Assembly (NCBI GenBank): GCA_903847975.1
Contig: CAINFC010000322.1
Span: forward strand, 12,405-76,404
Length of the DNA stretch: 64,000 nucleotides
Reading direction: 5' to 3'
Origin: an uncultured Acidobacteriota bacterium
GTDB taxonomy: Bacteria; Acidobacteriota; UBA6911; CAINFC01
Under the pieces are notes generated by a model. The model searched no databases. It was not told the origin of the DNA and worked only from the letters and a program-made list of their open reading frames with translations. Positions 56,006 to 64,000 of the stretch are shown here, one piece after another. The position numbers were made by a program, and so were the translations under genes. Position 1 is the stretch's first letter, and each line of letters begins with the position of its first letter.

Positions 56006-56935
56006 TCAAAGTCCGAAGCGGTGAAGGACCGGCTCGCTCCCGGCAGAAGCTTCGCGGGCTGCCAGGATGCGGATGCGAGGGTGCCGGCGGTGAAAGGCGG
56101 CGATTTCCTCCGGGGGCATTACCATGAACGCAGTGGAAAGGGCATCCATCATGGCTGCATTTCCGGGCAGCAGGGCGTCCGTGGCCTGCATCTCCTCTTC
56201 CGGTCCGGGTGCAGGTGTTTCCCTGTCGGCCCAGACCCACACGGCTCTTTTTCCCTGCAACGGGTTTCCTGTCCTGGGGTTGATGATATGCCCGCCTTTT
56301 TCCAGCCCGGAACCGCTGAATACGATGTGGCTGGCCTCCATGCGAAGGAGCTCCCTGGGTGGGTCGGCCGGCCAGGAGAGCCGCAATCCCCAGCCTTGCT
56401 CCTTCTCCGGCGGATCGAGAGCCAGAACCGAACTTTGCCCGCCATGAACCAGGAACCGGCGGATCTCCCAGTCCAGAAATTCTTCGGCCAGGCAATCGAT
56501 TGCATATCCCTTGCCGATGGCTCCAAAATCCAGGCGCAGTCCGGGCGCCAGAATTTCGGCGGCCATATTTTCCGGATCCAGAAGGATCGACTCCATGCCG
56601 CTTCCCAGGGTGACGTCAAAAGCGCCCCCGGTTTCCAGGTAGGCCCGGTTGGCCAGCTGCAGGCATTCCACGGTGGATTCTCCCAGAATCACCCGCTCAC
56701 CCACTTCTGCCTGGCAAAGGCGGGAGACGTCGCTGTTTTCCACGAAGCGGCTCAACTCCTGCTCGAGGCCGTCCAGCCGTCGAAAAGCCCTTTTGGCGGC
56801 CTGCCGGGCGTACTCCCGGTCCGGCAGGGAGATGAACACCTGGAACAGGGTGTTCATGGCCCCGTGGGTGAAGCAGTGGGCCGGCGGCCTTTCCGCGGTT
56901 GCTTCTTCCGGCGTGGGGTCGTCCTCGTTCCCCAT
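56006..56935 (-). CDS. apbE: FAD:protein FMN transferase (ApbE family), divergent, no signal peptide
   Basis: HGAMNTLF, SDVSRL, GAFDVT, LDFGAIGKGYAID, GGQSSV, GHIINPRTG, DALSTAFMV; ATG 56935. Confidence 0.9.
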   Translation of the reverse strand: MGNEDDPTPEEATAERPPAHCFTHGAMNTLFQVFISLPDREYARQAAKRAFRRLDGLEQELSRFVENSDVSRLCQAEVGERVILGESTVECLQLANRAYLETGGAFDVTLGSGMESILLDPENMAAEILAPGLRLDFGAIGKGYAIDCLAEEFLDWEIRRFLVHGGQSSVLALDPPEKEQGWGLRLSWPADPPRELLRMEASHIVFSGSGLEKGGHIINPRTGNPLQGKRAVWVWADRETPAPGPEEEMQATDALLPGNAAMMDALSTAFMVMPPEEIAAFHRRHPRIRILAAREASAGSEPVLHRFGL

Positions 56936-56945
56936 GGCGTTGCGG

Positions 56946-58547
56946 TCAGGGTTTCCTTTCACCCTGTTCCTCCGCCTCGCGCCGGAGATAATCTTCCCAG
57001 AGGGACCGGGCCACGTAGCCCCGGACCTCCACCTGCGGCCGGAGCTCGGTGTAGCTTTCCAGCATGCGCATGTAAAGCTCCCGCTCGCCGGGAGGGGGAA
57101 TCTCGTACAGCTTATGCACCACACCCGCCTCCATGTCCGGCGTGGCCAGAATCAGCGGGGCGTTGGCGGCCTGGTCCGAAAATCCGGTCCACCAGCGCGC
57201 TTTGGGAAAACGCCGCAGATACCAGGGGAGCGGCCAGAGGTTTTCCCGGCTGTAGACCTGTACCGGCATGCCGATACCATCCGGATGGGCTTTGGCGATG
57301 GCCTCGACTCGGCGGACGATGCTGAAAACTCCCGGACCGGTATGGGCGTAGACGAAAGGATTGCGGGGATCGGCATCCATCGGAAAGCAGGCGCGCCAGG
57401 ATTGCCAGCCAAGATGCCCGGCTCCGAGGAGAAACAGCCAGATCACTGCTCCCCGGTACCAGGAAGCCGGGAAGAGGCGGTAAAGCCGGATGGTCCCGAC
57501 ACCGGCCAGCAGGATCCACCCCAGCCAGAACTGAATCAGGCACCAGGGGGTTTTGTAGGCGATTGCGGCATAAAGGGCTGTCAGAAAAATCGTGTAAAGG
57601 CCCAGGAATCGGAGCAGCGTCCGGTCCAGGTCCACCCGCGGATGGCGGCTGAGGCTCTCCCATAATCCCAGGCAGCCGAAAAGAAAAATAAAGCCCTCTG
57701 TCCACACCGGTCCACCGGGCTCCCGGAAAAACAGAATGGTCTGCAGGTAATAGTACCAGGGGTGGGTATGGAGGGCCGCGTCGTGGATCCGCACCAGATA
57801 AAGGAAATAGGCACGAACCGAGTCGATGACCCCCGGCCAGTGGGAAAAGAAGGAGCTGTAGAAAACAACGGAGCTCAGCAGGGCGGCGAGCAGGAAGGCG
57901 ACCAGGTGCCGGCTTCGCCAAAAGGGGGCGGGATGTGCCGGGGACGGGTCCGCTGCCGGTCTACGGACGCATATGACCAGCGAGGCGGCTGCGGCGGCCA
58001 GGGACAGGCAAAAGGTCTCCTTGGTGGCATGCGAAAGGCCGAGCGCCAGGCCCGACAGAAGCAGCCAGCCGGGACGCGCGGAGCGGAAAAACCGGTAGCC
58101 GCAGGCCAGGAAGGCGCAACTGAAAAAAAGCAGCAGCATTTCCTGGATATAGTATCGGCTGTAATAAGCCATGACCGGGGAAACAGCCAGCAGGCAGGAG
58201 GCGGCGGCTACAGAGGGAAGCCCCAATCCGGACTTCCACAGCAGGAGGAGGGGGACCAGCAGCAGGCCGAACAGGGCCGGCACGGACCGCAGGAGTGCTT
58301 CACTCAGGTCGGTGTAGCGGTGAACTCCGCGGATCCAGGCGGGAAGGAGGGTGAAATAATTCAGGGTGGGTCCGTGGTACTCGCTGGGATCGTACCGGTA
58401 CCCGCCCCCCTCGAGGAGCGTCCCCAGCTTGTCAGCGTGCACCGCTTCGTCGCAGTGCATGGGCCGCCGCTCCAGCCCGGGAAGACGGAGCAGGGCGGCC
58501 CATGCCGTGGACAGCAGAATCAGCAGCCAGAAAGCGAGGTTTTTCAT
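56946..58547 (-). CDS. TIGR03663 / Agl23-like GT-C membrane glycosyltransferase
   Basis: RPMHCDEAVH, YRYDPSEYHGPTL.Y, YYSRYYIQE, ATKET, HPWYYY, YKTPW, WPLPWYLR. Confidence 0.85.
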   Translation of the reverse strand: MKNLAFWLLILLSTAWAALLRLPGLERRPMHCDEAVHADKLGTLLEGGGYRYDPSEYHGPTLNYFTLLPAWIRGVHRYTDLSEALLRSVPALFGLLLVPLLLLWKSGLGLPSVAAASCLLAVSPVMAYYSRYYIQEMLLLFFSCAFLACGYRFFRSARPGWLLLSGLALGLSHATKETFCLSLAAAAASLVICVRRPAADPSPAHPAPFWRSRHLVAFLLAALLSSVVFYSSFFSHWPGVIDSVRAYFLYLVRIHDAALHTHPWYYYLQTILFFREPGGPVWTEGFIFLFGCLGLWESLSRHPRVDLDRTLLRFLGLYTIFLTALYAAIAYKTPWCLIQFWLGWILLAGVGTIRLYRLFPASWYRGAVIWLFLLGAGHLGWQSWRACFPMDADPRNPFVYAHTGPGVFSIVRRVEAIAKAHPDGIGMPVQVYSRENLWPLPWYLRRFPKARWWTGFSDQAANAPLILATPDMEAGVVHKLYEIPPPGERELYMRMLESYTELRPQVEVRGYVARSLWEDYLRREAEEQGERKP

Positions 58548-59257
58548 TTGGCCGGCCGGCCAAACACCTCGACTTCCACCATATGGTTCAGCTCATTGGC
58601 GTTATTGCCGTTGCTGTAAAGGCGCACGTAGCGGGCTTTGGCCCCCTTGGCATCGATCAGCTTTCCTTCGGAGGTTTCCACGTAATTCATCTGCTTGCCG
58701 GCGCCCAGGCCGGAGGTGTTGTCATGGTCGTTGTTGAAAATCGTGCGGACGTTGCTGGTGAAGTCGCGGTCATCGGCCAGCTGCACGACAACATCGAAAT
58801 AAACCCGTGGGGTTTTGTGGAAATGCCAGACAACCACGGCAAAAATCTCGTGAGCGGCGCCGAGGTCCACGGTTTCGTTCTGCAGGCCCGGCCCGAATTC
58901 CACGAAGCTGCCGTCTCCGGCCGATTTGTCGCCGTCGGTGAGCATCTCAATTTCCCCGATGGTGGGTTCCTTATCGCTGGCAGCGACCTTTTTTCCCTTG
59001 GAGATCAGGACAACGCCGGCCGGGGCCAGGAAGGGTTCCCTCGGCTTTCCGAGAGGTTTTTCCAGGTTGGGTACCTTGAGGTTCTGGGGCGTTCCTTCGA
59101 ACATCGGCTTGGGCAGCTCCAGCGGAATGGGAACCAGCTTCTCCTGGGCCTGCACCGGGGTCACGGTCATCGATACCCCGAGAAAAAGAAGGGCAAACAG
59201 GCAGGAGCTCAGAACGGCGCCGCTGCCGGCCCAAATCCAGATACGGTTGGTTTTCAT
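58544..59257 (-). CDS. Secreted discoidin / F5-8 type C (galactose-binding-like) domain protein
   Basis: ATG 59257; signal peptide; LTDGDK, VDLG...I..VVVWH, ARYVRLYSNGN, NHMVEVEVFG. Confidence 0.8.
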   Translation of the reverse strand: MKTNRIWIWAGSGAVLSSCLFALLFLGVSMTVTPVQAQEKLVPIPLELPKPMFEGTPQNLKVPNLEKPLGKPREPFLAPAGVVLISKGKKVAASDKEPTIGEIEMLTDGDKSAGDGSFVEFGPGLQNETVDLGAAHEIFAVVVWHFHKTPRVYFDVVVQLADDRDFTSNVRTIFNNDHDNTSGLGAGKQMNYVETSEGKLIDAKGAKARYVRLYSNGNNANELNHMVEVEVFGRPAK

Positions 59258-59385: not shown

Positions 59386-60006
59386 TTACTGCGCCGGTTC
59401 CCGGGCTACCATGGACAAATAAACGAAGATGATTCCCGAAAGGAAAACGCCGAGCGTTGTGTAGCGATGCCAGAATAATAGCGAGTCCTGGCGTTCCGGC
59501 GTCAGCAGCGGGAACAGGGAGATGATGACCGAAACCGCTGCCGGTATGGACAGGGCGACCATGATCCAGAAAAAAATCTTCCGCAGGAGGACGGCATAGC
59601 TGTTGCGCGGGCCCATCTTGGAGGAGAAAGGATAGCGCAGTCTTCTCCAGTCGGCTTCCTGAAAGCGGTTCCGGTGTGCCCAGAGCAGCACGGTGAATAC
59701 CAGGGAGGCGATGTAAACCGGAGCTGCCGTCGCATGGGTCATCAGATCGAAGCCCGTCAGGTGATGTTCCGCCGAGCTGGTTCCGGTATAGGCCGAATAG
59801 GCCAGAACCCCCATGGCTCCGAAGGTGACCGTGTAGGTACCCAGCCGGAAAGGGATCATCAGCAGTGGGGCTCTCGGCTTCCGGCTCCCGGCCATCTTTC
59901 CCTTCTGCAGAAAGAACCGTACCGTCCGGAAGATGCAATGAGCGGCGAGGATTACCAGAACCAGGGTCAGCCAGTTGGCCACGGTAGCGCGAAATATGTT
60001 CTCCAT
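59386..60006 (-). CDS. Membrane cytochrome b-like protein (DUF4405 / Ni-hydrogenase cytochrome b-like)
   Basis: Five hydrophobic helices with His at helix positions typical of heme b ligands (LMTHATAAP, LFWHRYTT, also AHC and WAH). Confidence 0.65.
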   Translation of the reverse strand: MENIFRATVANWLTLVLVILAAHCIFRTVRFFLQKGKMAGSRKPRAPLLMIPFRLGTYTVTFGAMGVLAYSAYTGTSSAEHHLTGFDLMTHATAAPVYIASLVFTVLLWAHRNRFQEADWRRLRYPFSSKMGPRNSYAVLLRKIFFWIMVALSIPAAVSVIISLFPLLTPERQDSLLFWHRYTTLGVFLSGIIFVYLSMVAREPAQ

Positions 60007-60057: not shown

Positions 60058-62007
60058 TTATTCCGATTCCTTCTCAAAAGAGAGTGCCTTCGACAGGCGT
60101 CCCAGCCCGCGGAATCCGTAAAGCAGGCAGAAACCGGCGAGCAGGCCCAGGGCGACCCAGATGCTGCCTTTCATCCAGGGGCGGTATACGAAAGAATCGC
60201 TCAGCTTGTCGATGTAGGTCCGGTCGAAAGATTTCTGAAACCAGCTCATCTCCCGGACCTGCTGCCGTTCGGCGGCTATGGGCGAGTCGACGGTCACCTG
60301 GCCGTAGAAGAAATTCTCATTTTTGGAGTGGCAGTCTTCGCAGTGGTTGACGCCCAAAGCCTGAGTGGCGGGGCGCACATCGTGGGCCATCGGCCAGTAG
60401 TAAGGCTTGGCCGCCTCGCTCTCCTCCTCCACCAGCCCGTTTTTCATGCCGTTCAGGGCATGCAGCTTGCCGCCGCTGACATAAACGGGGCGCCCGGCGC
60501 CCGGTTCGCTTTTGCCCAGGGCCTCCAGTAGCGAGGCCATCTGGGCAGCCGTCCAATCCGGCCAGCTGCCGTCGGCCGGGATTTTCCACTGTTCCATCAG
60601 CTTGCCGGCCTTCAGGCGGACGGTATCGGGCGGCAGAGGGCTGACTTTCCCGCCGGCTTCATATCCCCAGAAGGAAGGCCAGATCGCCTTATAGGTGCCG
60701 ATTCTGCCGTTTTCGTCTTCGGCCAGCAGGGGGTACTGGATGTGCGGAAGGGCCATCGGGGCCTTGTTGACATTGCGCATACCCAGGAAATGGGTCTGGC
60801 TGGTCTTCTGGTATCGCACCTGGCGATCCGGCCAGGGACCGGAGTGGCATGCCGTGCAGTGCAGCTTGGTAAAATGAATCGAAGGAAACCCCTTGTGGGT
60901 TGGCCGCGGAGCGGCCATGCGTCCGGCGGTCGGAGCCGCAGAGGCCCCGGTTGCCCCTTCGCCAAGATGGCATCCCTTGCAGGTCAGGGCGGCTGCGGCG
61001 GGATCGCCGCCCCGGGCTGATTCGCCTTCATATCCCCGGACGATGCGATGGTCAAGGCTGTTGCGATGGCAGTCCACGCAGGTGAACCCGCGGCTCATGT
61101 GGATATCTTCATCGGCCTTCCAGCGATCCACGCCGAGCTGTGCGGTGTCGGCGTTGGAGTGGCAGAAATAGCAGCGCTTGGCCGGTACGGTTCGAACCAG
61201 GTCAAAGGCCACTTTGCTGCCGGCCCAGAAGCGGCTTTCGGCGTAGGCGGTCTTGGGCTGCTTGTCCCGGAGGCCGTCTTCCACATTGCCCAGCAGATAA
61301 TCGTAAGTGGAAGGCATGGCGGAGGCGCTGCCGGTGACGGCGGCGAGACCGCTGGAGGCGGCCGGAGCCCAGCGGAAATTCTCCCGAAGAATCTGGATGG
61401 CATATTCCGCATGGTCGTAAGCCGGGCTGTCGTCATGGCAGGTCAGGCAGTTGACTTCCACTTCGCCGGACAGCTCCCAGCGCGCAGCCGGATCTTCTTT
61501 CCGGGGGTCGGCATCGGCGCTGATACCTCCGGCCGTCCTTCCGGCGAAAAGGCGCGCAAACTGCCAGCGCGAGATGCCTGCCTCCTGGGGATGAAAGGTG
61601 CCCGGCCAGTGGCGATAAGACAGGGGAATCTGGGTGCCCGTCTGGGCATCGGCGAGAATCCACGGCTGCCCTTTGCGGCCCGGCGGAATGCCATTCTCCG
61701 TGGAGTTGAAATGCCAGCCGTTCCGGATCATGTCGTAGTCGTGACACTCGCCGCAGGTCGTCCGCGTGCTGAAGGGCAACGGCGGTTTGACATCGGGCAG
61801 CACCACGTCGCCCTCGGCAATGCGTAGTGGAATCAGGTGCGCCGGGTGAGCCCGGCTTCCGTCGCTGAAGTCGCCCAGCTTCGGCTTCTTGGGTTCGGGA
61901 GGATTAGCGGGAGGCGGATCGGCTCCCTGAACTCCCCATGCGGCGGCGAAAAAAAGCAGGGTGCTGATCCTGAGGATCCTGCGGTAAGCCTCTCTGTTCT
62001 GCTTCAT
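60058..62007 (-). CDS. Membrane-anchored multiheme cytochrome c, seven CxxCH motifs
   Basis: CGECH, CLTCH, CYFCH, CVDCH, CKGCH, CTACH, CEDCH; N-terminal signal and C-terminal TM helix. Confidence 0.93.
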   Translation of the reverse strand: MKQNREAYRRILRISTLLFFAAAWGVQGADPPPANPPEPKKPKLGDFSDGSRAHPAHLIPLRIAEGDVVLPDVKPPLPFSTRTTCGECHDYDMIRNGWHFNSTENGIPPGRKGQPWILADAQTGTQIPLSYRHWPGTFHPQEAGISRWQFARLFAGRTAGGISADADPRKEDPAARWELSGEVEVNCLTCHDDSPAYDHAEYAIQILRENFRWAPAASSGLAAVTGSASAMPSTYDYLLGNVEDGLRDKQPKTAYAESRFWAGSKVAFDLVRTVPAKRCYFCHSNADTAQLGVDRWKADEDIHMSRGFTCVDCHRNSLDHRIVRGYEGESARGGDPAAAALTCKGCHLGEGATGASAAPTAGRMAAPRPTHKGFPSIHFTKLHCTACHSGPWPDRQVRYQKTSQTHFLGMRNVNKAPMALPHIQYPLLAEDENGRIGTYKAIWPSFWGYEAGGKVSPLPPDTVRLKAGKLMEQWKIPADGSWPDWTAAQMASLLEALGKSEPGAGRPVYVSGGKLHALNGMKNGLVEEESEAAKPYYWPMAHDVRPATQALGVNHCEDCHSKNENFFYGQVTVDSPIAAERQQVREMSWFQKSFDRTYIDKLSDSFVYRPWMKGSIWVALGLLAGFCLLYGFRGLGRLSKALSFEKESE

Positions 62008-63399: not shown

Positions 63400-63592
63400 G
63401 GTTAATTCTCCTTATCGAACAAATCCAAATATAAATACGCCTGTCTTTTTAAAATGTTACCTTGAACTTGCCTTGCCGAAGCATTGGGATTAAAAACCAT
63501 CTGGCGGAAAACATCAAGAGGATTTTTAGGGGGGAGGAGGAGACTATCCGGAACCCCTGGGGTTCTCGTCTTTTTGCGCCTTTATCGGGGGA

Positions 63593-63657
63593 GGATGAAG
63601 CGGTAATTAAGTCCCCCAACCCCTTTCGGGGTTCTGGGACTTTTTGCCGGGTCATCG
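63593..63657. repeat. Short element with the family A terminal motif and an internal hairpin
   Basis: Right end GACTTTTTGCCGGGTCATC is the exact reverse complement of GATGACCCGGCAAAAAGTC at 27033; internal AACCCC-TTTC-GGGGTT. Confidence 0.6.
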
Positions 63658-63713
63658 GGGAGGACGGAGGTGAAAAGAATCCTGACGGGGCGAAATGCTT
63701 CCCGTTCCGCACA

Positions 63714-63846
63714 AAGCCCCCGGGAAGCGATAGTGTATTGAAGAAAGAGCCCTGGAAGGGCGGCCTAAAGCAAACGGTAAAAAGGATTTAGGTCGCTATC
63801 ACAGGGCTCGGATTTTACAACCTTAACGATATCCGGTCTTTCGCCC
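63714..63846. repeat. REPIN-like element, family C, degenerate copy 2
   Basis: AAGCCCC(C)GGGAAGCGAT.GTGTATTG...GAGCCCTG.AAGGGCGGCCTAAA...TAGGTCGC...ACAGGGCTC collinear with 34876-34975. Confidence 0.75.
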
Positions 63847-63880
63847 CGCGCCAGGCTTGGCACAGGGCGTGCGGGAAGGG

Positions 63881-64000
63881 TTATTTTTTGACCAGACGAA
63901 TGCTGCCGTTGACGGTTTCCAGTTGGATTTTCCCTTTGCCGCTGCCCAGGGAACCGCTCATCTCTTTTCCCACCAGATGTTTCTTTACCTCGAAAGGAAA
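63881..64000 (-). CDS. C-terminal fragment of a probable DUF4097 beta-strand repeat protein (gene starts outside the window)
   Basis: Manual translation FPFEVKKHLVGKEMSGSLGSGKGKIQLETVNGSIRLVKK*. Confidence 0.7.
   Translation of the reverse strand, partial: FPFEVKKHLVGKEMSGSLGSGKGKIQLETVNGSIRLVKK

Follow-up and report, generated by a model that had tools for sequence, protein, structure and literature searches.

Genes at the locus

The window, i.e. the whole stretch of 64,000 nucleotides that was analysed, carries on its minus strand a gene for a heptaheme c-type cytochrome of 649 amino acids (P0001; 60058..62007), which was delineated from the ORF, alignments and an AlphaFold model. This gene is flanked 33 nucleotides upstream by a gene for a 452-amino-acid Gfo/Idh/MocA dehydrogenase with a Tat signal (P0002; 62041..63399, minus strand) and 51 nucleotides downstream by a gene for a 206-amino-acid FdnI/PF01292-like membrane cytochrome b (P0003; 59386..60006, minus strand). 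In the same orientation follow the genes for a membrane-anchored or secreted discoidin-like (F5/8 type C-like) protein (58544..59257), a polytopic membrane glycosyltransferase of the GT-C / PMT_2-like type (56946..58547) and an ApbE-family flavin transferase devoid of an N-terminal hydrophobic segment (56006..56935). Among sequencing runs, the locus is found in lake-water metagenome DNA, and no RNA run holding it was found.

Heme motifs, membrane anchor and probable axial ligands

P0001 is a multiheme c-type cytochrome, composed of a signal peptide, a periplasmic part with seven hemes and a C-terminal transmembrane (TM) anchor. The first-pass annotation had claimed exactly seven CxxCH motifs, and this number was borne out. 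They start at residues 85, 187, 279, 310, 343, 384 and 556, compared to 0.012 motifs expected from the composition of the protein, and all seven are invariant in each of the homolog sets (42, 120 and 83 homologs), the motif of heme 1 taking the form CxxxCH in one subgroup of the family. Fourteen of the 15 cysteines belong to these motifs and the remaining one (C627) is located inside the TM helix. The signal peptide (residues 1 to ~28, MKQNREAYRRILRISTLLFFAAAWGVQG; 61924..62007, minus strand) was called by eye from the sequence, with an approximate cleavage site; it is Sec-type in appearance, and the N-terminal region is variable in the family alignment. The C-terminal anchor, also claimed earlier, is real, as the hydrophobic segment from residues 611 to 636 (60100..60177, minus strand) is spanned by a long helix (residues 596-643) in the AlphaFold model.

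The heme motifs, all encoded on the minus strand, were aligned with those of MmcA from the Rnf complex of Methanosarcina acetivorans and of OTR from Shewanella. The first motif (CGECH, residues 85-89; 61741..61755) was placed in the family alignment. The second (CLTCH, 187-191; 61435..61449) aligns with heme 2 of MmcA and hence with heme 3 of OTR, and is preceded by a loop of the 'F-G-x-x-x-P-G-G-G' type at the position where, by transitive alignment via MmcA, OTR carries its catalytic heme 2. The third (CYFCH, 279-283; 61159..61173) aligns with heme 3 of MmcA, which has a CxxxCH motif there, and the fourth (CVDCH, 310-314; 61066..61080) with heme 4 of MmcA and heme 5 of OTR. The fifth (CKGCH, 343-347; 60967..60981) corresponds to heme 5 of MmcA, where the motif is CxxxxCH, and to heme 6 of OTR, the sixth (CTACH, 384-388; 60844..60858) to hemes 6 and 7, and the seventh (CEDCH, 556-560; 60328..60342) to hemes 7 and 8 of MmcA and OTR, respectively. 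Motif 4 is flanked by the conserved H303 upstream and H320 ('LDHxIxRGY') downstream, motif 6 is preceded by the invariant H371 and H378, and motif 7 by the invariant H542 ('AHDVRP'). The periplasmic part also contains a non-heme alpha/beta insert at about residues 420-545. Both strings quoted previously for the clustered hemes are present, 'DIHMSRGFTCVDCH' at residues 301-314 and 'HKGFPSIHFTKLHCTACH' at residues 371-388; in the latter, H371 and H378 are conserved, whereas H383 of 'LHC' is not (consensus 'KLTCTACH').

Seven histidines outside the motifs are 100% conserved in the 83 orthologs of P0001 (H57, H99, H303, H320, H371, H378 and H542), and the last five of them align with conserved histidines of MmcA. 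The hemes of MmcA, and those of OTR except heme 2, are reported to be bis-His ligated (PMC11024163). Most likely, all seven hemes of P0001 are bis-His ligated as well, the axial ligands having been assigned from conservation and homology only, since the AlphaFold model holds no hemes; its pLDDT is below 50 over hemes 4-5. Further conserved residues are H406 (98%), H422 (94%) and M587 (96%), in view of which one heme may have His/Met or another ligation, together with K401 and K415.

Partner proteins

A Pfam search with P0003 itself remained below thresholds; PF01292 was matched by 14 of 18 P0003 orthologs (best E 7e-15), and the P0003 family profile matches FdnI (1KQF_C, E 7.5e-5). H91 and H180 are the only invariant histidines of the family, and this pair suggests a single heme b on the periplasmic side. 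Compared with FdnI, the position of H18 is occupied by a tyrosine, and a phenylalanine is found 14 residues past H180, where the second TM4 histidine of FdnI falls by spacing. In some relatives, the cytochrome c and the cytochrome b are fused into one protein of ~800 amino acids.

The nearest solved relatives of P0002 are DgpA, GFOR and glucuronide 3-dehydrogenase, and the protein contains a Tat motif. We propose P0002 as the electron donor to the heptaheme cytochrome. The use of the cytochrome with a sugar oxidoreductase, as suggested in the first-pass annotation, agrees well with this Tat-exported Gfo/Idh/MocA protein, whose gene is directly upstream and conserved and whose activity is predicted.

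Electron transfer from NAD(P)H to heme normally requires a flavin. The flavinylation motif of ApbE is [S/T]GA[S/T] (PMC8238504), and a conserved [ST]G[AS][ST] motif is absent from all six orthologous groups of the locus. Two stretches of P0001 were considered as flavin sites and rejected: the loop containing 'TGAS' (residues 353-356, after heme 5) varies among homologs or is missing from them, and most homologs have K or R as the last residue of 'VTGSAS' (residues 224-229). The co-conserved ApbE gene hints that a flavin bridges the hydride to single electrons.

Conservation of the neighbourhood and distribution

Relatives of the cytochrome occur in at least 547 species-representative genomes, mainly of Planctomycetota and Acidobacteriota, and form 324 clusters at 50% identity (E <= 1e-30); a small number of loci bear the label Omnitrophota, Calditrichaceae or Cytophagia. 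The neighbourhood was counted in 85 loci fetched from these 547 genomes, and the gene order is kept in all those whose sequence extends far enough. The Gfo/Idh/MocA gene (56-70% identity) is directly upstream of the cytochrome gene wherever sequence exists, and the cytochrome b gene is directly downstream in 73 of 83 loci. The genes for the discoidin-like protein (60-70% identity across phyla), the GT-C protein and ApbE are found in the same orientation at distances of 0.5-9 kb, their order being shuffled between Planctomycetota and Acidobacteriota. In addition, a gene for a DUF1080 3-keto-disaccharide hydrolase is located just upstream in 37 of 60 relatives. No description of a module combining Gfo/Idh/MocA, multiheme and ApbE proteins was found in the literature, including that on Phycisphaerae.

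Proposed function

The arrangement of the locus points to a respiratory chain in which the heptaheme cytochrome, exported by the Sec route and held at the membrane by its single C-terminal helix, would act as a non-catalytic electron wire. The Tat-exported Gfo/Idh/MocA enzyme would oxidise a periplasmic sugar or glycoside, probably to a 3-keto-glycoside, and the hydride of its NAD(P)H would be split into single electrons that run along the seven hemes. From there the electrons would pass, presumably within a physical complex, to the FdnI-like cytochrome b, whose single heme b would sit close to the periplasmic side, and then to the quinone pool. We consider it probable that the heptaheme protein is such a non-catalytic wire, linking a glycoside dehydrogenase in the periplasm with the quinone pool that receives its electrons.

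The same proteins could also work in the opposite direction. In an outward conduit of the CbcL type, the cytochrome b would take electrons from quinol and hand them to the heptaheme protein, whose acceptors would lie in the periplasm or outside the cell, or would be the Gfo/Idh/MocA protein acting as a keto-sugar reductase. The combination of c-type and b-type cytochromes and the fusions do resemble CbcL, in which a nine-heme cytochrome c sits on a diheme cytochrome b (PMC9129911), Fe(III) and AQDS can be reduced by MmcA itself (PMC11024163), and in a separate MmcA-like heptaheme group (P0347-P0349) a complete PF01292 cytochrome b forms part of the same polypeptide. However, the tightest and most conserved partner of the cytochrome is the exported dehydrogenase directly upstream, 3-keto-glycoside hydrolase genes adjoin in most relatives, and the fetched loci showed no genes for an outer-membrane conduit. 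Moreover, redox chemistry disfavours an outward conduit, as the conversion of an alcohol to a ketone runs downhill with menaquinone as oxidant, unlike the reverse reaction. We therefore regard outward flow as unlikely and retain the wire from the dehydrogenase to the quinone pool. As to P0347-P0349, their assignment to the same lineage as P0001 was rejected, since BLASTP with P0001 gave motif-length matches only; they represent a separate lineage.

Relationship to MmcA and OTR

A first reading of the comparisons, that the family has only generic multiheme similarity to known cytochromes, was overturned by the comparison with MmcA. Using hhalign, the family profile matched the MmcA sequence with 97% probability (E 6e-11, 88 bits) and the MmcA profile with 98.8% probability (E 1.2e-16, 125 bits) over 309 columns. 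This alignment spans hemes 2-7 with their order kept and includes the non-heme domain that separates heme 6 from heme 7. The match with the OTR profile is weak (55%, 45 bits); its register is the one expected from the MmcA-OTR alignment, with hemes 4-7 of the family on hemes 5-8 of OTR. An OTR sequence read by machine from the supplement of a paper aligned in a shifted register with 10% probability, and a clean OTR alignment was used in its place.

Part of such scores can arise from the heme motifs alone, and the likeness to MmcA and OTR might accordingly reflect convergence or attraction between motifs, leaving the family without specific relatives. The control with NrfB (48 bits, 86% probability) shows that multiheme profiles attract each other, NrfA reached 40 bits and 40% probability, and permuted controls in which C and H were kept reached up to 93% probability. 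Foldseek of the AlphaFold model, in which hemes 4-5 have the low pLDDT given above, against the PDB returned nothing at E <= 0.001. Similarly, when PDB sequences were searched with P0001 and with the profile of its family, the only matches, to NrfA and reaction-centre cytochromes, were weak and local, and OTR (1SP3) was not among them. Against this explanation, the C/H-preserving permutations scored on average 30.6 bits and at most 43 against the MmcA sequence (real score 88), and 38.4 +/- 8.7 bits with a maximum of 65 against the MmcA profile (real score 125), which places the real profile score ~10 SD above them. The 309 aligned columns extend into the non-heme domain, and the registers of the family-MmcA, family-OTR and MmcA-OTR alignments are mutually consistent. 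The spacing between successive motifs also follows a matching pattern, with 102, 92, 31, 33, 41 and 172 residues in P0001 and 63, 74, 35, 40, 24 and 164 in MmcA. Convergence or motif attraction thus appears improbable, and homology of the P0001 family to the OTR/MmcA superfamily is supported by these profile comparisons. The heme spacing that had been put forward earlier as characteristic of the OTR-like family has less value in this respect: 'H-x-G-x2-C-x-D-C-H' is not diagnostic by itself, because the same spacing occurs in NrfA and NrfB.

The profile search and phylogeny proposed in the first-pass annotation were both carried out. Over 42 family members, the OTR model was the most frequent NCBIfam match (39 of 42) and the MmcA model the third (27 of 42, local matches), the best E-value for the latter, TIGR04314, being 2.6e-8. 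For P0001 itself both models stay below cut-off: TIGR04315 (OTR) gave 29.7 bits against a cut-off of 375, as a local match of residues 298-348, and TIGR04314 gave 14.2 bits against a cut-off of 250. MmcA is encoded by the gene that comes first in the Rnf operon, has no TM domain and has CxxxCH as its heme 3 motif and CxxxxCH as its heme 5 motif (PMC11024163), whereas P0001 comes from a bacterial context, has a C-terminal TM helix and has canonical CxxCH motifs at both hemes. OTR has eight hemes, with a conserved lysine ligand at the catalytic heme 2 (PMC11024163, citing Mowat 2004), whereas P0001 has seven motifs, the 'FGxxxPGGG'-type loop replaces heme 2, and the family alignment contains no conserved lysine at the position of K171 of OTR, W296 and D301 being invariant in that stretch. 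In the tree, the P0001 family is a clade on its own long branch (support 100/100), which makes it a new, deeply branching lineage within the superfamily, outside both named families. It is a separate and very deep branch, nearer to MmcA than to OTR. The earlier assignment to a bacterial heptaheme branch of the OTR/MmcA family consequently stands as to relationship, on the strength of the MmcA profile match, but not as to membership, which the curated OTR and MmcA models reject.

That the protein is instead an OTR-like catalytic enzyme that reduces tetrathionate, nitrite or hydroxylamine and in which one heme is open or oddly ligated is very improbable: the distant relationship to OTR and the unusual ligation that H406, H422, K401, K415 or M587 could provide are outweighed by the Gly-rich loop in place of OTR heme 2, as in MmcA, by the lack of a conserved counterpart of the OTR lysine, by seven invariant distal histidines for seven hemes, and by a score of 30 bits with an OTR model whose cut-off is 375.

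Significance and comparison with known systems

Published descriptions of MmcA restrict it to Methanosarcinales and give OTR as its only relative. The relatives of P0001 add a large bacterial sister family with its seven-heme scaffold. The electron acceptor of Tat-exported Gfo-type glycoside dehydrogenases such as BT2158 is an open question in the literature, and the fixed partnership with Gfo/Idh/MocA provides a concrete candidate answer for the exported, NAD(P)-carrying glycoside 3-dehydrogenases (PMC8121099), which could explain how exported sugar dehydrogenases are re-oxidised. If true, abundant bacteria of sediments, soils and lakes would draw electrons for respiration directly from sugars oxidised outside the cytoplasm. 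More tentatively, the family might be the electron-accepting subunit of widespread, undescribed periplasmic glycoside (sugar):quinone oxidoreductases, in which an MmcA-type heptaheme wire together with a mono-heme cytochrome b would re-oxidise a Tat-exported NAD(P)-carrying enzyme, and a flavin placed at a non-canonical site by the signal-less ApbE would mediate the change from two-electron to one-electron transfer. On this view the scaffold of MmcA would be an ancient module that can be moved between systems, paired with Rnf in methanogens and with cytochrome b in bacteria. We hold this wider reading to be doubtful at present.

Among known systems, MmcA (TIGR04314) shares with P0001 its seven hemes in the same order and with similar spacing, the Gly-rich loop at the site of the catalytic heme of OTR, and the conserved distal histidines and non-heme domain between hemes 6 and 7, and each seems to conduct electrons at the membrane without catalytic activity of its own. 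MmcA is ~150 amino acids shorter, lacks the TM helix, has the CxxxCH and CxxxxCH variants at hemes 3 and 5, belongs to an Rnf operon, and all reports of it come from Methanosarcinales, which here means methanogens and ANME archaea. In contrast, the P0001 family, present in the bacterial species genomes counted above, has canonical motifs, a TM anchor, Gfo/Idh/MocA and cytochrome b partners and a long branch of its own. OTR (SO_4144, PDB 1SP3; TIGR04315), although the most frequent curated match of the family, is a soluble eight-heme enzyme with a catalytic heme 2 and a lysine ligand, whereas P0001 is an anchored seven-heme protein and a predicted wire.

In its layout the locus resembles formate dehydrogenase-N (FdnGHI) and related periplasmic dehydrogenases that depend on Tat. 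In both cases the catalytic subunit is exported by Tat, the electron-transfer subunit has one C-terminal TM helix, and the cytochrome b is of the FdnI type; the heptaheme protein stands where FdnGHI has its Fe-S subunit FdnH. The two differ in that FdnGHI is a molybdoenzyme with a four-cluster Fe-S wire, whereas the locus codes for a heptaheme cytochrome c and an NAD(P)-type Gfo/Idh/MocA protein, and P0003 keeps only the histidine pair of the periplasm-side heme. The fused members of ~800 amino acids are comparable by layout to CbcL of the inner membrane of Geobacter sulfurreducens, in which an all bis-His multiheme c-type domain is likewise joined to a b-type domain; CbcL differs from the family by its nine c hemes, its six-helix diheme b domain and the passage of quinol electrons outward (PMC9129911). 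Finally, BT2156-BT2160 of Bacteroides thetaiotaomicron (PMC8121099) combine a Tat-signal Gfo/Idh/MocA gene with a DUF1080 hydrolase and a TIM-barrel gene, an arrangement common to most relatives of the locus described here. No cytochromes are linked to these genes, whereas here a pair of cytochromes c and b is attached.

Sequence features and distribution of the cytochrome

The open reading frame at 60058-62007 (minus strand) codes for a 649-residue protein, P0001, with seven CxxCH motifs (residues 85, 187, 279, 310, 343, 384 and 556), against 0.012 predicted from its composition. Fourteen of its 15 cysteines lie within these motifs and the last one in the hydrophobic helix near the C-terminus. 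A Sec signal peptide can be read at the N-terminus, and the sole transmembrane-like segment (residues 611-636) lies inside a long helix (596-643) of the AlphaFold model. The seven motifs and C-terminal membrane anchor noticed in the first-pass annotation are thus confirmed, and the sequence strings quoted there were all found in P0001. The model has a pLDDT of 79, yet falls below 50 across hemes 4-5, and its comparison with the PDB by Foldseek gave no match. Residues 420-545, between hemes 6 and 7, were confidently modelled (pLDDT > 90) as a non-heme alpha/beta domain, which found no Foldseek match and may be a docking surface. Pfam recognised only generic c7/c3 domains in P0001.

A word-indexed search yielded more than 835 homologs with 44-54% identity, nearly all unnamed or labelled 'hypothetical'. 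An exhaustive search of 50%-identity representatives gave 324 clusters at E <= 1e-30, and a scan of species-representative genomes located relatives in 547 stretches. They belong mostly to the Planctomycetota (Phycisphaerae, Sedimentisphaerales) and Acidobacteriota (Bryobacterales), with a few loci labelled Omnitrophota, Calditrichaceae or Cytophagia. The seven heme motifs are invariant throughout P0001 and its orthologs (the window family), heme 1 taking the form CxxxCH in one subgroup. Seven histidines outside the motifs (H57, H99, H303, H320, H371, H378 and H542) are conserved at 100% in 83 orthologs, followed by H406 (98%), M587 (96%) and H422 (94%). The only public runs in which the gene was found are lake-water metagenomes (word shares of 1.00 and 0.91) and one sediment metagenome (0.10); no RNA data containing it were found. 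Full-text literature searches found no description of the family or its gene module.

A conserved gene module

The cytochrome gene is preceded on the same strand, with a gap of 33 nt, by the gene of a Tat-signal Gfo/Idh/MocA dehydrogenase (P0002, 62041-63399) and followed after 51 nt by that of a 206-aa membrane protein (P0003, 59386-60006). Genes for a discoidin-like protein (58544-59257), a GT-C/PMT_2-like protein and an ApbE homolog (56006-56935; Pfam E 3e-31) come next in this order, all on the minus strand; the first two overlap by ATGA. Wherever sequence exists in the 85 loci that were fetched, the gene directly upstream of the cytochrome is that of the dehydrogenase (56-70% identity), and the discoidin-like, GT-C and ApbE genes are on the same strand within 0.5-9 kb, their order differing between Acidobacteriota and Planctomycetota. 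The membrane protein gene is directly downstream in 73 of 83 loci. Between phyla the discoidin-like protein shows 56-71% identity, equalling the dehydrogenase in conservation and exceeding the other module members. A DUF1080 3-keto-disaccharide hydrolase gene lies just upstream of the dehydrogenase in loci L001, L002 and L004 and in 37 of the 60 relatives with upstream sequence, usually together with a xylose-isomerase-like TIM-barrel gene. Many loci also carry three or four more Tat Gfo/Idh/MocA paralogs upstream. In the window, no convincing ORF was found in the ~600 nt upstream of the dehydrogenase (63400-64000), where the window ends.

Among proteins of solved structure, DgpA, Zymomonas GFOR and glucuronide 3-dehydrogenase are the nearest relatives of P0002. 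The NCBIfam models that match it best are those of UDP-GlcNAc 3-dehydrogenase, inositol 2-dehydrogenase and the BT_2158 glycoside 3-dehydrogenase; each score is far below the cut-off, and the alignment with the BT_2158 model takes in the Tat region.

ApbE is co-conserved with the module. The ApbE homolog of the window has no hydrophobic N-terminal segment at any possible ORF start, and for this reason it may act in the cytoplasm, unlike classical ApbE, a lipoprotein. No conserved [ST]G[AS][ST] motif was found in any of the six module proteins. A proposed flavinylation site of P0001, 'TGAS' within 'EGATGAS' after heme 5 (residues 350-356; 60940-60960, minus strand), was rejected; it is probably a chance match, since the loop around it varies and is missing from several homologs.

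The P0003 family profile matches FdnI of formate dehydrogenase-N (E 7.5e-5) and 14 of 18 orthologs match PF01292; by sequence, P0003 is a probable member of the FdnI/cytochrome b561 family. Among its orthologs H91 and H180 are the sole invariant histidines, and we read them, from the positive-inside rule, as lying at periplasmic helix ends. The position of FdnI H18 is a Tyr in P0003, and the site matching the second TM4 histidine of FdnI by spacing, 14 residues past H180, is a Phe in the window protein. This pattern suggests that P0003 binds just one heme b, on its periplasmic face. In homologs of ~780-820 aa (P0007-P0021; 6001-8430 in loci L002 and L003) the cytochrome is naturally fused to an FdnI-like membrane protein, whose counterpart in the window is the separate gene 59386-60006. 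A rival reading, in which the module is a CbcL-like conduit (PMC9129911) that oxidises quinol and passes electrons outward, is compatible with this c/b architecture but leaves the invariant dehydrogenase partner unexplained.

Relation to MmcA and octaheme tetrathionate reductase

The curated models of octaheme tetrathionate reductase (OTR) and of MmcA, the Methanosarcina heptaheme cytochrome, gave P0001 29.7 bits (cut-off 375) and 14.2 bits (cut-off 250), respectively. PDB sequence and profile searches returned just a weak local match to NrfA, with OTR 1SP3 not among the matches. Across 42 family members, OTR was the most frequent NCBIfam match (39/42) and MmcA the third (27/42).

The family profile was aligned by hhalign with an MmcA sequence published by Gupta et al. 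2024 (PMC11024163, supplement), which is 95% identical to a database MmcA. The match (97%, E 6e-11, 203 columns) placed hemes 2-6 in the same order, with four distal histidines and a Gly-rich loop before heme 2 in common. Its 88 bits compare with a mean of 30.6 (maximum 43) for MmcA shuffled with all C and H fixed, 16.4 (maximum 23) for fully shuffled MmcA, and 40 and 48 for E. coli NrfA and NrfB. An alignment of 21 MmcA sequences raised the match to 98.8% (E 1.2e-16, 139 bits, 309 columns), covering residues 148-565 of P0001, that is hemes 2-7 and the non-heme domain; column permutation with C/H columns fixed gave 38.4 +/- 8.7 bits (maximum 65; real 125). The match to 20 aligned OTR sequences was weak (55%, 45 bits), and it set family hemes 4-7 on OTR hemes 5-8, as predicted from the MmcA-OTR alignment (99.9%, 272 bits). 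The 420-545 domain aligns with the corresponding region of both proteins. Heme spacings are similar in P0001 (102, 92, 31, 33, 41, 172) and MmcA (63, 74, 35, 40, 24, 164). In a maximum-likelihood tree the window family forms a single clade (100/100), which a very long branch sets off from OTR, MmcA and other heptaheme groups.

Taken as a statement of homology, the OTR/MmcA reading of the first-pass annotation is thus supported by the profile alignments with their consistent OTR register, the controls, the spacings and the tree. As to membership, the family forms a deep branch of its own, a new one, nearer to MmcA than to OTR and falls inside neither curated family. This tested link and the rejection of the flavinylation site are new in this analysis.

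OTR is defined by its catalytic heme 2 and the lysine ligand of that heme (PMC11024163). An OTR-like enzyme is unlikely here, because by transitive alignment a Gly-rich loop replaces heme 2, as it does in MmcA, no conserved Lys stands at the ligand position in the family alignment, and seven invariant distal histidines, five of them aligned with conserved MmcA histidines, are present for seven hemes. From these residues we infer that P0001 is a wire in which every heme is bis-His ligated and none is open. Attraction between heme motifs without homology is also unlikely, given the far lower control scores and the aligned non-heme domain.

The MmcA query also found P0347-P0349, 764-aa heptaheme proteins of a separate lineage, which lies nearer to MmcA than to the window family. 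Their heptaheme part is fused to a full PF01292 cytochrome b, and the annotation of some members is 'thiosulfate reductase cytochrome b subunit'; an MmcA-type module has thus become paired with cytochrome b more than once.

Proposed function and comparison with known systems

With P0001 as a wire, oxidation of a periplasmic sugar or glycoside would supply electrons, which would pass through its seven hemes, then the heme b, and enter the quinone pool. The weak link of this scheme is the conversion of an NAD(P)H hydride into single electrons. Liu et al. 2021 (PMC8121099) left the acceptor of BT2158, a Gfo-type enzyme exported by Tat, unidentified, and in the phyla where it occurs the module is a possible answer to this question. 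The layout is that of formate dehydrogenase-N: the catalytic subunit is exported by Tat, the electron-transfer subunit has a single C-terminal helix, and the cytochrome b is of the FdnI type, except that a heptaheme protein stands here in place of the Fe-S subunit.
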